NCBI RefSeq assembly: GCF_058153355.1
Contig: NZ_CM177019.1
Reading direction: 5' to 3' (one strand)
DNA length: 64,000 nt
The first letter of the stretch is position 1, and every line of letters starts with the position of its first letter. Positions 742 to 40,186 of this stretch are shown here, piece after piece. Under the pieces are notes generated by a model. The model saw only the letters and a list, made by a program, of their open reading frames with translations. It did no database searches and was not told where the DNA came from. The position numbers and the translations under genes are program-made.

Positions 742-1758
742 ATGAACGCTAAGATAATTGCCTCGCTGGCCTTCACCAGCATGTTCAGCCTCAGCACCCT
801 GTTAAGTCCGGCGCACGCCGAAGAGCAGGAAAAGGCGCTGAATTTCGGCATTATTTCAACGGAATCACAGCAAAACCTGAAACCGCAATGGACGCCGTTC
901 TTACAGGATATGGAGAAGAAGCTGGGCGTAAAGGTCAACGCCTTCTTTGCCCCGGACTACGCGGGCATTATCCAGGGGATGCGCTTCAATAAAGTGGATA
1001 TCGCCTGGTACGGCAATCTATCGGCGATGGAAGCGGTGGATCGCGCCAACGGTCAGGTCTTCGCCCAGACGGTCGCGGCGGATGGATCGCCGGGTTACTG
1101 GAGCGTGTTGATCGTCAACAAAGACAGTCCGATCAACAACCTGAACGATCTGCTGGCGAAGCGTAAAGATCTCACCTTTGGCAATGGCGATCCTAACTCC
1201 ACCTCTGGCTTCCTCGTCCCCGGCTACTACGTCTTCGCCAAAAACAATATCTCCGCCAGCGACTTCAAGCGCACCGTCAACGCCGGGCATGAAACCAACG
1301 CGCTGGCCGTCGCCAACAAGCAGGTGGATGTGGCGACCAACAACACCGAGAACCTCGACAAGCTGAAAACCTCCGCACCGGAGAAGCTCAAAGAACTGAA
1401 GGTGATCTGGAAATCGCCGCTGATCCCAGGCGATCCGATCGTCTGGCGCAAAAATCTTTCCGAAACCACCAAAGACAAGATCTACGACTTCTTTATGAAC
1501 TACGGCAAAACGCCGGAAGAGAAAGCGGTGCTGGAGCGCCTGGGCTGGGCCCCGTTCCGCGCCTCCAGCGACCTGCAACTGGTGCCGATTCGCCAGCTCG
1601 CGCTGTTTAAAGAGATGCAGGGCGTGAAAGGCAATAAAGGGCTGAATGAGCAGGACAAGCTGGCAAAAACCAGCGCCATTCAGGCGCAACTGGATGACCT
1701 GGACCGCCTGAACAACGCGTTAAGCGCGATGAGTTCGGTGAGTAAAGCGGTGCAGTAA
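742..1758 (+). CDS. phnD: Periplasmic phosphonate-binding protein PhnD
   Basis: 338-aa ORF with N-terminal signal peptide (…LLSPAHA/EE), GAGGAAAA RBS upstream, operon position after phnC. Confidence 0.92.
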   Translation: MNAKIIASLAFTSMFSLSTLLSPAHAEEQEKALNFGIISTESQQNLKPQWTPFLQDMEKKLGVKVNAFFAPDYAGIIQGMRFNKVDIAWYGNLSAMEAVDRANGQVFAQTVAADGSPGYWSVLIVNKDSPINNLNDLLAKRKDLTFGNGDPNSTSGFLVPGYYVFAKNNISASDFKRTVNAGHETNALAVANKQVDVATNNTENLDKLKTSAPEKLKELKVIWKSPLIPGDPIVWRKNLSETTKDKIYDFFMNYGKTPEEKAVLERLGWAPFRASSDLQLVPIRQLALFKEMQGVKGNKGLNEQDKLAKTSAIQAQLDDLDRLNNALSAMSSVSKAVQ

Positions 1759-1773
1759 TGTGCTCGATCGGTC

Positions 1774-1860
1774 CCCTCTCCCTTGAGGGAGAGGGTTAGG
1801 GTGAGGGGGGAAATACGCACGCTGATGCCCTCACCCCGGCCCTCTCCCACAGGGAGAGGG
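1774..1860. repeat. Three nested GC-rich stem-loops in the phnD-phnE intergenic region
   Basis: CCCTCTCCC-TTGA-GGGAGAGGG (about 1774-1795), GGGTGAGGG…CCCTCACCC (about 1799-1807 with 1828-1836) and CCCTCTCCC-ACA-GGGAGAGGG (about 1840-1860). Confidence 0.75.
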
Positions 1861-1884
1861 AGAAAACATTAAACGGAGCCAAAC

Positions 1885-2664
1885 ATGCAAACCATCACCA
1901 TCGCCCCACCCAAGCGCAGCTGGTTCTCGCTTCTGAGCTGGGCCATTGTTCTCGCCGTGCTGGTCGTCTCGTGGCAGGGCGCGGAAATGGCCCCGCTCAC
2001 GCTGATTAAAGACGGCGGCAACATGGCGACGTTCGCCGCCGACTTCTTCCCGCCCGATTTCAGCCAGTGGCAGGATTACCTCACCGAAATGGCCGTCACG
2101 CTGCAAATCGCCGTCTGGGGCACCGCGCTGGCAGTCGTTCTCTCCATCCCCTTCGGCCTGATGAGCGCCGAAAACCTGGTGCCGTGGTGGGTGTACCAGC
2201 CCGTGCGCCGTCTGATGGACGCCTGCCGCGCCATTAACGAAATGGTCTTCGCCATGCTGTTCGTGGTCGCCGTCGGTCTCGGGCCGTTCGCTGGCGTGCT
2301 GGCGCTGTTTATTCACACCACCGGCGTGCTTTCCAAACTGCTTTCCGAAGCGGTGGAAGCGATTGAACCCGGCCCGGTGGAAGGTATTCGCGCCACTGGT
2401 GCCAACAAGCTCGAAGAGATCCTCTACGGCGTGCTGCCGCAGGTGATGCCGCTGCTGATCTCCTACTCCCTCTATCGCTTCGAATCCAACGTCCGTTCGG
2501 CCACCGTTGTTGGCATGGTCGGCGCTGGCGGGATCGGCGTCACGCTGTGGGAAGCGATTCGCGGTTTCCAGTTCCAGCAAACCTGCGCCCTGATGGTGCT
2601 GATTATCGTCACGGTCAGCCTGCTGGATTTCCTCTCTCAACGGTTGCGTAAGCACTTTATCTGA
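1885..2664 (+). CDS. phnE: Phosphonate ABC transporter permease PhnE (intact reading frame)
   Basis: 259-aa hydrophobic ORF with GGAG RBS, uninterrupted; lies between phnD and phnF. Confidence 0.85.
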
Positions 2665-7104: not shown

Positions 7105-7250
7105 GGTGCCGGATGCGGCGTAAACGCCTTATCCGGCTTTTCAGGCCGCAACGCCTGATGGCGCTTCGCTTATCAGGCCTACAAAACCATCGTAATACGT
7201 TGATATTGATTCATTTGTAGGCCGGATAAGGCGCAGCCGCCATCCGGCAA
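7105..7250. repeat. REP palindromic units between phnK and phnL
   Basis: GCCGGATGCGGCGTAAACGCCTTATCCGGC, GCCTGATGGCGCTTCGCTTATCAGGCCTAC and TAGGCCGGATAAGGCGCAGCCGCCATCCGGC in the 167-bp phnK-phnL gap. Confidence 0.85.
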
Positions 7251-10061: not shown

Positions 10062-10820
10062 ATGAGCCTGACCCTCACACTTACTGGCACTGGCGGCGCA
10101 CAGGGCGTTCCCGCATGGGGCTGTGAGTGTGCGGCCTGCGCCAGAGCGCAGCGCTCACCGCAGTATCGCCGCCAGCCATGCAGCGGCGTCGTGAAGTTTA
10201 ACGAGGCGATCACCCTGATCGACGCCGGGCTGCACGATCTCGCCGATCGCTGGTCGCCCGGATCGTTCCAGCAGTTTTTGCTGACGCACTACCATATGGA
10301 TCACGTGCAGGGGCTGTTTCCGCTGCGCTGGGGCGTGGGCGATTCTATCCCGGTCTACGGCCCGCCGGATGAACAGGGCTGCGACGATCTGTTTAGACAT
10401 CCGGGCCTGCTTGATTTCAGCCACACGGTGGAGCCATTTGTGATGTTTGATTTGCAGGGATTACAGGTCACGCCGCTGCCGCTCAACCATTCGAAACTCA
10501 CTTTCGGCTATCTACTGGAAACGGCACATAGCCGGGTGGCGTGGCTGTCTGACACCGCAGGCCTGCCGGAAAAAACGGTGAAATTTTTACGCAATAATCA
10601 GCCGCAGGTGATGGTGATTGATTGCAGCCACCCACCGCGCGCGAATTCGCCACGCAATCACTGTGATTTAAACACCGTGCTGGCGCTGAATGAAGTTATC
10701 CGCTCGCCGCGCGTGGTTCTGACACATATCAGCCATCAGCTTGATGTGTGGCTGATGGAGAACGTACTGCCGTCAGGGTTTGAGGCGGGGTTTGATGGGA
10801 TGGAGATTGGGGTGGAGTAA
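10062..10820 (+). CDS. phnP: Metallo-beta-lactamase-fold phosphodiesterase PhnP
   Basis: 252-aa ORF with HxHxDH metal motif ([10 protein letters not shown]); last gene of the operon. Confidence 0.9.
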
Positions 10821-10854
10821 TGGGTGAGGGGCGATGCCTGCTCTAAACTCAACA

Positions 10855-19053: not shown

Positions 19054-21201
19054 ATGAAAAAAGTCGTCACGGTTTGCCCCTATTGCGCATCAGGTTGCAA
19101 AATCAACCTGGTCGTCGATAACGGCAAAATCGTCCGGGCGGAGGCAGCGCAGGGCAAAACCAACCAGGGTACCCTGTGTCTGAAGGGGTATTATGGCTGG
19201 GATTTCATTAACGATACCCAGATCCTGACCCCGCGCCTGAAAACCCCCATGATTCGTCGCCAGCGTGGCGGCAAACTCGAACCTGTTTCCTGGGATGAGG
19301 CACTGAATTACGTTGCCGAGCGCCTGAGCGCCATCAAAGAGAAGTACGGTCCGGATGCCATCCAGACGACCGGCTCCTCGCGTGGTACGGGTAACGAAAC
19401 CAACTATGTAATGCAAAAATTTGCGCGCGCCGTTATTGGTACCAATAACGTTGACTGCTGCGCTCGCGTCTGACACGGCCCATCGGTTGCAGGTCTGCAC
19501 CAATCGGTCGGTAATGGCGCAATGAGCAATGCTATTAACGAAATTGATAATACCGATTTAGTGTTCGTTTTCGGGTACAACCCGGCGGATTCCCACCCTA
19601 TCGTGGCGAATCACGTAATTAACGCTAAACGTAACGGGGCGAAAATTATCGTCTGCGATCCGCGCAAAATTGAAACCGCGCGCATTGCTGACATGCACAT
19701 TGCACTGAAAAACGGCTCGAATATCGCGCTGTTGAATGCGATGGGCCATGTCATTATTGAAGAAAATCTGTACGACAAAGCGTTCGTCGCTTCCCGTACA
19801 GAAGGCTTTGAAGAGTATCGTAAAATCGTTGAAGGCTACACGCCGGAGTCGGTTGAAGATATCACCGGCGTCAGCGCCAGTGAGATTCGTCAGGCGGCGC
19901 GGATGTATGCCCAGGCGAAAAGCGCCGCCATCCTGTGGGGCATGGGTGTAACCCAGTTCTACCAGGGCGTGGAAACCGTGCGTTCTCTGACCAGCCTCGC
20001 GATGCTGACTGGTAACCTCGGTAAGCCGCATGCGGGTGTAAACCCGGTTCGTGGTCAAAACAACGTGCAGGGGGCCTGCGATATGGGCGCACTGCCAGAT
20101 ACTTACCCTGGCTACCAGTATGTGAAAGATCCGGCTAACCGCGAGAAATTCGCCAAAGCCTGGGGTGTAGAGAGTCTGCCTGCTCATACCGGTTATCGCA
20201 TCAGCGAGCTGCCGCACCGCGCAGCGCATGGTGAAGTGCGTGCCGCGTACATTATGGGCGAAGATCCGCTACAAACTGACGCGGAGCTGTCGGCAGTACG
20301 TAAAGCCTTTGAAGATCTGGAACTGGTCATCGTTCAGGACATCTTTATGACCAAAACCGCGTCGGCGGCGGATGTCATTTTACCGTCAACGTCGTGGGGC
20401 GAGCATGAAGGCGTGTTTACTGCGGCTGACCGTGGCTTCCAGCGTTTCTTCAAAGCAGTTGAACCGAAATGGGATCTGAAAACGGACTGGCAGATTATCA
20501 GTGAAATCGCCACCCGTATGGGTTATCCGATGCACTACAACAACACCCAGGAGATCTGGGATGAGTTGCGTCATCTGTGCCCGGATTTCTACGGTGCGAC
20601 TTACGAGAAAATGGGCGAACTGGGCTTCATTCAGTGGCCTTGTCGCGATACTTCAGATGCCGATCAGGGGACTTCTTATCTGTTTAAAGAGAAGTTTGAT
20701 ACTCCGAACGGTCTGGCGCAGTTCTTCACCTGCGACTGGGTAGCGCCAATCGACAAACTCACCGACGAGTATCCGATGGTACTGTCAACGGTGCGTGAAG
20801 TCGGTCACTACTCTTGCCGTTCGATGACCGGTAACTGTGCGGCACTGGCGGCGCTGGCTGATGAACCTGGCTACGCACAAATCAATACCGAAGACGCCAA
20901 ACGTCTGGGTATTGAAGATGAGGCATTGGTTTGGGTGCACTCGCGTAAAGGCAAAATTATCACCCGTGCGCAGGTCAGCGATCGTCCGAACAAAGGGGCG
21001 ATTTACATGACCTACCAGTGGTGGATTGGTGCCTGTAACGAGCTGGTTACCGAAAACTTAAGCCCGATTACGAAAACGCCGGAATACAAATACTGCGCCG
21101 TGCGCGTCGAGCCGATCGCCGATCAGCGCGCCGCCGAGCAGTACGTGATTGACGAGTACAACAAGTTGAAAACTCGCCTGCGCGAAGCGGCATTGGCGTA
21201 A
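19054..21201 (+). CDS. fdhF: Formate dehydrogenase H (selenocysteine-containing, molybdopterin) FdhF; in-frame UGA at 19471-19473 decoded as Sec
   Basis: Track ORFs 19054-19473 and 19522-21201 are in the same frame, separated only by a TGA; merged length is 715 aa; N-terminal Cys cluster CPYCASGC; the UGA sits in CCARV-U-HGPS and is followed by a hairpin. Confidence 0.92.
19474..19515 (+). promoter_or_regulatory. SECIS stem-loop directing selenocysteine insertion at the fdhF UGA
   Basis: Sequence immediately 3' of the TGA (CACGGCCCATCGGTTGCAGGTCTGCACCAATCGGTCGG…) can fold into the stem-loop expected for a bacterial SECIS. Confidence 0.7.
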
Positions 21202-21986: not shown

Positions 21987-22250
21987 TAGGCCTGATAAGA
22001 CGCGGTAAGCGTCGCATCAGATATTAATGTCGGATGCGGCGTAAACGCCTTATCCGACCTACAAAATCACCCTAAATCAAGCTATTGCGCAGTCTGGCGT
22101 AGGCCTGATAAGACGCGGCAAGCGTCGCATCAGGCATTGATGTCGGATGCGGCGTAAACGCCTTATCCGACCTACAAAATCACGCTAAATCAGGCTATTG
22201 CGCAGTCTGGCGTAGGCCTGATAAGACGCGGCAAGCGTCGCATCAGGCAT
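21987..22250. repeat. BIME/REP array: five REP palindromic units in alternating orientation, about 113-bp period
   Basis: Repeated units TAGGCCTGATAAGACGCGGCAAGCGTCGCATCAGGC and GTCGGATGCGGCGTAAACGCCTTATCCGACCTAC, with near-identical 113-bp repeats starting near 21987, 22100 and 22213. Confidence 0.85.
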
Positions 22251-32678: not shown

Positions 32679-32795
32679 TGCCGGATGCGATCCGGGCAAC
32701 AAGTCGGAAACGATTTGTAGGCCTGATAAGACGCGACAGCGTCGCATCAGGCATTGATTGCCGGATGCGGCGTATAACGCCTTATCCGGCCTACA
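32679..32795. repeat. REP palindromic units between acs and yjcH
   Basis: TAGGCCTGATAAGACGCGACAGCGTCGCATCAGGC and GCCGGATGCGGCGTATAACGCCTTATCCGGCCTAC. Confidence 0.8.
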
Positions 32796-40044: not shown

Positions 40045-40186
40045 ATCAACACCAACCGGAACCTCCACCACGTGCTCGAATGAGGTGTGTTGACGTCGGG
40101 GGAAACCCTCCTGTGTACCAGCGGGATAGAGAGAAAGACAAAGACCGGAAAACAAACTAAAGCGCCCTTGTGGCGCTTTAGTTTTG
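40045..40186 (+). ncRNA. ryjA: Small RNA RyjA (SraL), converging on the soxR 3' end
   Basis: Known K-12 sRNA location between ghxP and soxR on the strand opposite soxR; a TACAAT -10-like element near 40033-40038; ends at a hairpin TAAAGCGCC-CTTGT-GGCGCTTTA plus GTTTTGTT that overlaps the soxR stop. 5' end is approximate. Confidence 0.45.

Follow-up and report, generated by a model that had tools for sequence, protein, structure and literature searches.

A BoxC-type palindromic pair between phnD and phnE of Escherichia coli, its alternative alleles and a possible role in the mRNA

Introduction

What occupies the gap between phnD and phnE in the phosphonate (phn) operon of Escherichia coli, and does it affect the genes on either side? 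The phn operon has 14 genes, and the use of phosphonate requires that transcription from the phnC promoter reaches phnE–P. The phnD–phnE gap is the sole sizeable gap in the operon. According to the original prediction, it holds a module of three consecutive GC-rich stem-loops, which differ from canonical REP units and act either as an mRNA stabiliser or as a partial attenuator. The gap was analysed as part of a 64-kb stretch of DNA; this whole stretch is called the window in the following.

Results

Locus and gene layout

The window starts in the E. coli phn operon. In the list of open reading frames, phnC (to position 717) is followed by phnD, phnE and then phnF, phnG etc. E. coli 2020CK-00188 matches the phn region with 100% identity and has the genes annotated alike. 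The features next to the gap are as follows:

742–1758, plus strand: phnD, phosphonate ABC transporter periplasmic binding protein, 338 aa, TAA stop codon at 1756–1758 (open reading frame and 2020CK-00188 annotation)
1875–1878, plus strand: Shine-Dalgarno sequence GGAG of phnE, 6 nt 5' of the ATG at 1885 and 14 nt past the last stem base
1885–2664, plus strand: phnE permease, intact, 259 aa (open reading frame list and 2020CK-00188 annotation)

The gap comprises 126 nt (1759–1884), and the repeat element described below is wholly intergenic, lying between the stop codon of phnD and the start codon of phnE. There are 15 nt between the phnD stop codon (1756–1758) and the first stem base (1774). 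In the RNA folds, the Shine-Dalgarno sequence of phnE is outside the main stems and not sequestered. The sequence CGGAGCCAAAC-ATG at the phnE start is conserved over alleles and genera.

The window phnE is intact, and K-12 phnE is annotated as a pseudogene (phnE1, locus L001, 2444–3282). The annotated start of phnE1 lies ~51 nt upstream of the conserved ATG, within a REP pair. This is a warning for annotation, as BoxC/REP-type repeats generate spurious open reading frames. One minus-strand frame of the window (1680–1850, 56 aa, GEG/LTL-rich translation) runs through the repeat and was rejected as a by-product of the repeat rather than a gene. A second one (1831–2676, 281 aa), antisense to phnE, also appeared to be a by-product and not a gene.

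Hairpins and predicted fold

From 5' to 3', the gap reads TGTGCTCGATCGGTC-CCCTCTCCC-TTGA-GGGAGAGGG-TTA-GGGTGAGGG-(20 nt)-CCCTCACCC-CGG-CCCTCTCCC-ACA-GGGAGAGGG-AGAAAAC and so on. A repeat finder reported three perfect inverted repeats of about 9–10 bp each, which form three local hairpins:

1774–1795, plus strand: hairpin 1, arms CCCTCTCCC (1774–1782) and GGGAGAGGG (1787–1795), 9 bp, 4-nt loop TTGA, ~−18.6 kcal/mol
1799–1836, plus strand: hairpin 2, arms GGGTGAGGG (1799–1807) and CCCTCACCC (1828–1836), 9 bp, 20-nt loop, ~−18.4 kcal/mol
1840–1860, plus strand: hairpin 3, arms CCCTCTCCC (1840–1848) and GGGAGAGGG (1852–1860), 9 bp, 3-nt loop ACA, ~−18.1 kcal/mol

The arms were strongly over-represented. 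The arrangement CCCTCTCCC-N2-6-GGGAGAGGG was found twice in the window and not once in 100 shuffles. The block GGGAGAGGG occurred four times (0.14 expected) and GGGTGAGGG three times (0.17 expected).

The predicted RNA fold of 1750–1895 had an energy of −74.7 kcal/mol (z = −7.0), and none of 200 shuffles was as stable. The opposite strand of the same interval reached −71.7 kcal/mol (z = −5.75). As the arms of hairpin 1 and hairpin 3 are complementary to each other, the lowest-energy structure is one nested hairpin. For the gap alone (1759–1884), this single nested hairpin has ~30 near-continuous base pairs and −69.8 kcal/mol. Three side-by-side hairpins amounted to −54.7 kcal/mol, or −60.8 kcal/mol when the RNA was refolded with the three hairpins enforced.

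Most of the original prediction on structure was therefore upheld. The gene coordinates confirmed a gap of 126 bp between the binding-protein and the permease genes, three perfect 9-bp hairpins were present beyond chance expectation in shuffled sequences, and the calculated folding energy showed a very stable structure. The parsing as a triple hairpin module did not hold: the hairpins are there, and they are really parts of an inverted pair of three-block units.

Assignment to the BoxC family

BoxC is a known family of palindromic repeats in E. coli (PMC2267715). Its members are non-coding, GC-rich and dispersed in Enterobacteriaceae. The family was found anew under the name of 'potential intrastrand triplex' (PIT) elements, which were later called TMECO (Holder et al. 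2015, PMC4666352). The TMECO consensus is 5'-CCCTCNCCC N3-6 GGGNGAGGG N3 GGGNGAGGG-3' (PMC4666352). The K-12 catalogue holds 23 TMECO units, and five K-12 loci have two inverted units, which are always one type A and one type B (Holder et al. 2015, PMC4666352).

A regular expression of this consensus had exactly two matches in the 64-kb window, at 1774–1807 (plus strand) and 1860–1828 (minus strand). Both are in the phnD–phnE gap, which can be divided as follows:

1774–1808, plus strand: type A TMECO/BoxC unit, CCCTCTCCC-TTGA-GGGAGAGGG-TTA-GGGTGAGGG-G, second loop TTA
1808–1827, no strand: central spacer GGGAAATACGCACGCTGATG between the units, the most variable part among full-length alleles
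1827–1860, minus strand: type B TMECO/BoxC unit, CCCTCTCCC-TGT-GGGAGAGGG-CCG-GGGTGAGGG-C, second loop CCG
1759–1867, no strand: full composite BoxC, consisting of flank TGTGCTCGATCGGTC, type A unit, spacer, inverted type B unit and flank AGAAAAC

The type A unit equals MG1655 TMECO no. 2 save for the last base, and the type B unit is identical to MG1655 TMECO nos. 1 and 4. The limits of the composite (~1759–1867) were set by alignment with four MG1655 composites, which showed that the flanks belong to the unit. The conserved parts of the composites are the flanks GTGCTCGATCGGTC (left) and GAGAAAAC (right) and a spacer of ~20–30 nt. The same architecture is found in the K-12 pairs at hrpB–mrcB, on the 3' side of fepB, at ygfF–gcvP and on the 3' side of alx. 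The middle 'hairpin' of the gap is the pairing between the outer G-blocks of the two inverted units. Judged by its sequence, the gap element is one composite BoxC/PIT/TMECO copy in the 'palindromic pair' form, i.e. a type A unit with an inverted type B unit. Further literature on the BoxC/PIT/TMECO family reportedly includes Bergler 1992, Bachellier, and Hoyne and Maher 2000 and 2002.

A BLAST search with the 126-nt gap as a query found matches in 4507 of 5426 complete E. coli genomes. There was a median of five places per genome (a maximum of 13), nearly all of them chromosomal. The commonest strong match was not the phn copy but the copy at hrpB–mrcB, with 93.6% identity over 109 nt (query positions 1–109). 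With many places per genome and the commonest strong match at another locus, the element is a dispersed repeat.

No motif of the REP consensus (GCC[G/T]GATG... core plus imperfect palindrome) was found in 1759–1884. At gathering thresholds, Rfam 15 assigned no family, including naRNA4/REP, to the element in a search of the whole window. At permissive E-values, the BoxC region matched just generic miRNA-precursor hairpins, with at most 28 bits against gathering thresholds of 55–168. The idea that the arms form a dispersed repeat family distinct from REP, raised along with the original prediction, thus proved correct in both parts: the family is the known BoxC/PIT/TMECO, and REP motifs are present elsewhere in the window and absent from 1759–1884.

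The Rfam matches at gathering thresholds lay at 19466–19520, 40045–40185, 21989–22172 and 32720–32791 and comprised SECIS_2, the sRNA sraL and three naRNA4 (REP-derived). REP-like motifs or naRNA4 outside the gap were found, for example, at 21989–22172 and 32680–32791, with further motifs near 7108, 55285 and 63329–63418.

The phn copy shares its structural features with catalogued BoxC elements. These are the consensus on both strands, the TTA and CCG loops, the inverted A and B units, the spacer of ~20 nt and the flanks. It is also alike in being intergenic, dispersed in many copies, variable between strains at its locus and prone to deletions that preserve a hairpin. Nothing structural differs; what sets the phn copy apart is its place within an operon, where a binding-protein gene precedes it and a permease gene follows.

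The element also resembles MITEs (ERIC/IRU, RUP, NEMIS), which are small, non-coding, dispersed inverted repeats that fold as RNA and are present or absent depending on the strain. No recognisable target-site duplication of the MITE kind was seen at the phn or the hrpB–mrcB copy, and inspection of the junctions of the phn copy and its paralogues showed no consistent direct duplication. For this reason the MITE reading, though still conceivable, was set aside. We know of no transposase for the BoxC family.

In summary of the family comparison, every defining BoxC feature that was tested at the sequence level was found, and the features of REPs and of intrinsic terminators were not. The element itself is of an already known kind: the first description of the family dates from the 1990s, and a catalogue of its copies in E. 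coli genomes from 2015.

The two ends of the phn operon

The available part of the supplement of Holder et al. names phn just for the K-12 unit located 3' of phnP. The phnD–phnE copy is absent from the K-12 catalogue because K-12 has a REP pair there. Directly 3' of phnP, K-12 carries the full TMECO unit no. 22 and a partial BoxC hairpin. In the window, phnP ends at 10820 and is followed at 10821–10835 by a single GGGTGAGGGG block, and the gap is ~100 nt shorter than in K-12. With REP at phnD–phnE and BoxC 3' of phnP in K-12, and the reverse in the window strain, the BoxC occupancy at the two places is opposite.

Alleles of the site within E. coli

K-12 MG1655 has the same flanks (GTGCAGTAA ... 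CGGAGCCAAACATG) with a wholly different insert, which consists of two canonical REPs, i.e. a BIME. The alleles were distributed over the 5426 complete E. coli genomes as follows:

K-12-type BIME at phnD–phnE: 3874 genomes (71.4%)
BoxC-derived, window orientation, full or collapsed: 1338 genomes (24.7%)
Full BoxC pair, a subset of the 1338: 354 genomes (6.5%)

The number 1338 refers to the window orientation; counts of the oppositely oriented collapsed allele are blurred by the cross-alignment of palindromic alleles. The BoxC pair was collapsed to a single hairpin in about 18% of the genomes. In an evenly spaced sample of 59 genomes, 42 had the BIME, two the BIME with a 16-nt deletion, four the full BoxC pair, ten a collapsed pair and one an intermediate form. 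That REP and BoxC stand in for each other as alleles at a single site within the operon is a small new point. The window allele is also carried by E. coli 042, which was sequenced long ago. An empty site was not seen in any of the 59 sampled genomes; a 60-nt junction query of the complete genomes let half-matches pass the E-value limit.

The gap lengths of the BoxC alleles were 126/125/124, 67, 61, 60 and 64 nt, the last being an inverted allele. Strain U1 retains CCCTCTCCC-ACA-GGGAGAGGG, which corresponds to a deletion between the direct copies of CCCTCTCCC. Strain 2014C-4587 retains CCCTCTCCC-TTGA-GGGAGAGGG, corresponding to a deletion between the direct copies of GGGAGAGGG, while EC11 and VCSW8 retain the left hairpin plus TTAGGG. 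Each of the three different deletion alleles joins direct repeats and leaves a hairpin. They match the 'palindrome effect' of Holder et al., in which hairpin-preserving deletions are attributed to replication slippage (Holder et al. 2015, PMC4666352). The deletion alleles show that the BoxC pair at phnD–phnE is unstable. In strain 2021CK-00607, the collapsed hairpin is reversed in orientation. The reversal includes the flanks, which points to a separate insertion or to an inversion of the whole element.

One PhnD protein (accession WP_000992002.1, loci L005–L011) was found beside the full pair, two collapsed BoxC kinds and the deleted BIME. Changes or recombination of the gap allele are therefore not tied to the coding sequence beside it.

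The same gap in other species

The comparison between species covered 80 species-representative loci encoding a PhnD relative, which are phylogenetically non-independent; 79 of them had a measurable phnD–phnE gap. BoxC blocks were present in 41 of these gaps and REP-like motifs in ~29. Another seven gaps (Atlantibacter, Enterobacillus, two Vibrio and others) contained GC hairpins of neither type, with energies of ~−19 to −31 kcal/mol (z of ~−3 to −5). The remaining two gaps were bare (22–23 nt); Enterobacteriaceae bacterium LSJC7 has such a bare gap of ~22 nt. Some strong palindrome, be it BoxC, REP or a unique hairpin, was thus present in 77 of the 79 gaps. The neighbouring gaps were short and only occasionally expanded, with medians of 24 nt (phnC–phnD) and 20 nt (phnE–phnF).

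The near-universal palindrome at this site across genera is a second small new point. The pattern fits selection for some stem-loop here, and it is also compatible with a strong bias of palindromic repeats towards insertion and retention at this spot. A comparison of sense and antisense folds of the 79 gaps gave no signal of selection at the RNA level: the antisense strand was the more stable one in 51 gaps (Wilcoxon p = 4e-5), with the purine-rich Shine-Dalgarno flank as a possible confounder. The spacing between stop codon and first paired base in the lowest-energy folds was discarded as a measure, because weak outer pairs made it uninformative.

BoxC occurred in several arrangements across genera: in the window orientation (several Enterobacter), inverted (Lelliottia, Leclercia and E. 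asburiae), everted, collapsed and in tandem arrays. Four loci, L038 (Pseudenterobacter), L063 (Leclercia), L087 (Buttiauxella) and L094, had gaps of 200–280 nt. Their expansion consists of tandem arrays with units of ~35–45 nt, which lie between or beside the BoxC units.

Two Pseudocitrobacter loci, L019 (P. faecalis) and L020 (P. vendiensis), encode a PhnD that shares 99% identity with the E. coli protein. In L019, a gap of 251 nt holds two composite BoxC pairs in tandem; in L020, the collapsed allele (61 nt) has the same sequence as in E. coli 2014C-4587. Going by sequence likeness, this suggests a recent intergeneric exchange of the phn region or a taxonomic mislabel.

Discussion

A possible role in the phn mRNA

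To our knowledge, a function of BoxC has never been established. The explanation that we favour, with somewhat better than even confidence, is that the BoxC pair, if it has any effect, acts like a REP as a block to 3'-to-5' exonucleases and does not stop RNA polymerase. The pair would be transcribed within the phnC–P mRNA, and the transcript would fold with −55 to −70 kcal/mol, beginning 15 nt past the phnD stop codon. Exonucleases moving in the 3'-to-5' direction would be blocked at this structure, and the upstream phnCD segment would outlive the segment of the permease and the C–P lyase. The element itself was probably a selfish or neutral repeat when it came to this site. A benefit, if there is one, would then consist in the supply of a stem-loop, a job that unrelated palindromes would do in other lineages.

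The stabiliser proposed in the original prediction, here as one that sets the PhnD:PhnE ratio, is plausible by analogy, because of the likeness to REP and the near-universal strong palindrome in the gap across genera. REPs located after binding-protein genes are described as a barrier to 3'-to-5' exonucleases (Newbury et al. 1987, in the passage of PMC12306157 that cites it). As with the REP/BIME elements of ABC-transporter operons (malE–malF, hisJ–hisQ), the BoxC pair directly follows the binding-protein gene and precedes the genes of the membrane components. Each of the two is a stable, GC-rich palindrome within the mRNA, and at the phnD–phnE site REP/BIME is the alternative allele. The two differ in that BoxC is an unrelated sequence family with no REP consensus, and that mRNA stabilisation is experimental for REP and an analogy for BoxC. 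A literature search on phnD/phnE with REP or stem-loop returned nothing useful.

Several observations speak against a stabiliser. Two lineages have a bare gap, and E. coli strains differ in having the full pair, one 9-bp hairpin or the BIME at this site, which argues against a strong dependence on a particular structure. The comparison of sense and antisense folds and the negative published tests of PIT elements also count against it. Moreover, palindromic repeats may prefer sites just after stop codons or within earlier palindromes.

Alternative explanations

In the alternative that survives best, the pair is purely a selfish or neutral repeat and leaves phn expression unaffected; its gap would be the one place of the operon that tolerates insertions, where palindromic repeats preferentially land by stop codons or replace one another. 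We give it about one chance in three. The site is highly polymorphic within one species, slippage between direct repeats is enough to produce the collapsed alleles mechanically, and neither the bare gaps of two lineages nor the missing sense-strand bias in fold stability point to a function. The published tests, as summarised in Holder et al. 2015 (PMC4666352), likewise detected neither promoter nor terminator activity, nor any connection with what the neighbouring genes do. Against neutrality, a strong palindrome is kept in 77 of 79 species representatives, while the adjacent gaps are rarely expanded. In Atlantibacter, Enterobacillus and Vibrio, the hairpins match neither BoxC nor REP motifs, and the sampled E. 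coli genomes included no empty site.

An activity at the DNA level seems doubtful to us, slightly more so than neutrality. The G-rich strand would form a purine-motif triplex, or the DNA a cruciform, when single-stranded; this would stall replication and create a hotspot of deletion and rearrangement, and any effect on expression would be incidental. Purine-motif intrastrand triplex formation by the G-rich single strand was observed by CD and NMR with type A and type B oligonucleotides (PMC4666352). TMECO oligonucleotides form stable triplexes in vitro, with a Tm of 70–82 °C, and TMECO loci vary more than control loci (PMC4666352). Variation of this kind was also found at phnD–phnE, with three or more independent deletion alleles plus one allele of opposite orientation in E. 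coli and with tandem duplicated or arrayed versions in other genera (L019, L038, L063 and L087). However, the double-stranded form gave no triplex signal, and in vivo DMS footprinting was unsupportive (Holder et al. 2015, PMC4666352). Instability is also a property and not a function, and it leaves the retention of a palindrome in nearly all lineages unexplained.

Effects on translation or RNA processing are unlikely. Either the stem would stall terminating ribosomes and lower PhnD, or RNase III would cut the nested duplex of ~30 bp and separate phnCD from phnE–P. Stalling of terminating ribosomes has been reported for REPs less than 16 nt from a stop codon (Liang, Rudd and Deutscher 2015, as far as quoted in PMC12306157), and the 15 nt between the phnD stop codon and the stem are exactly at this limit. 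The distance is thus at the very edge of the reported range, the rule was set up on REPs and not on BoxC, and less binding protein would go against the usual stoichiometry of ABC importers. The ~30 near-continuous base pairs of the nested fold would suit RNase III, but an RNA that folds while it is being transcribed may instead form the three local hairpins, and these are too short for this enzyme.

A partial attenuator or terminator that lowers the transcription of phnE–P relative to phnCD, the second option of the original prediction, is highly improbable: a very stable GC-rich stem-loop inside a polycistronic operon is what the element shares with Rho-independent terminators, but there is no T/U run after the structure on either strand (downstream sequence AGAAAACAUUAAA, tail AGAAAACATTAAA), a promoter and terminator scan of 1500–2200 found nothing at the BoxC element on either strand, phnE–P need transcription from the phnC promoter for phosphonate use, and PIT elements tested for function had neither promoter nor terminator activity and left RNA polymerase unaffected, according to the summary in Holder et al. 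2015 (PMC4666352).

Significance

A further reading is that the phnD–phnE gap is a selected 'hairpin slot'. A strong stem-loop right after the binding-protein gene would be kept across Enterobacteriaceae and Vibrio, and unrelated palindromes would interchange with no loss of function. These palindromes may comprise unique hairpins, REP/BIME and BoxC in three arrangements. We regard this idea as tentative and rather less likely to be right than wrong. If it is true, BoxC does at the RNA level what REP does, even though the published tests were negative, and the full pair, the single hairpin and the BIME found in natural E. coli strains would form a ready-made allelic series.

The element as such is ordinary. 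Its value lies in the context, as a natural BoxC pair, a collapsed hairpin and a REP pair are found at one and the same operon position. Such an allelic series bears on whether BoxC can do the mRNA job of REP, and on whether there is selection for a stem-loop after the binding-protein genes of ABC-transporter operons.
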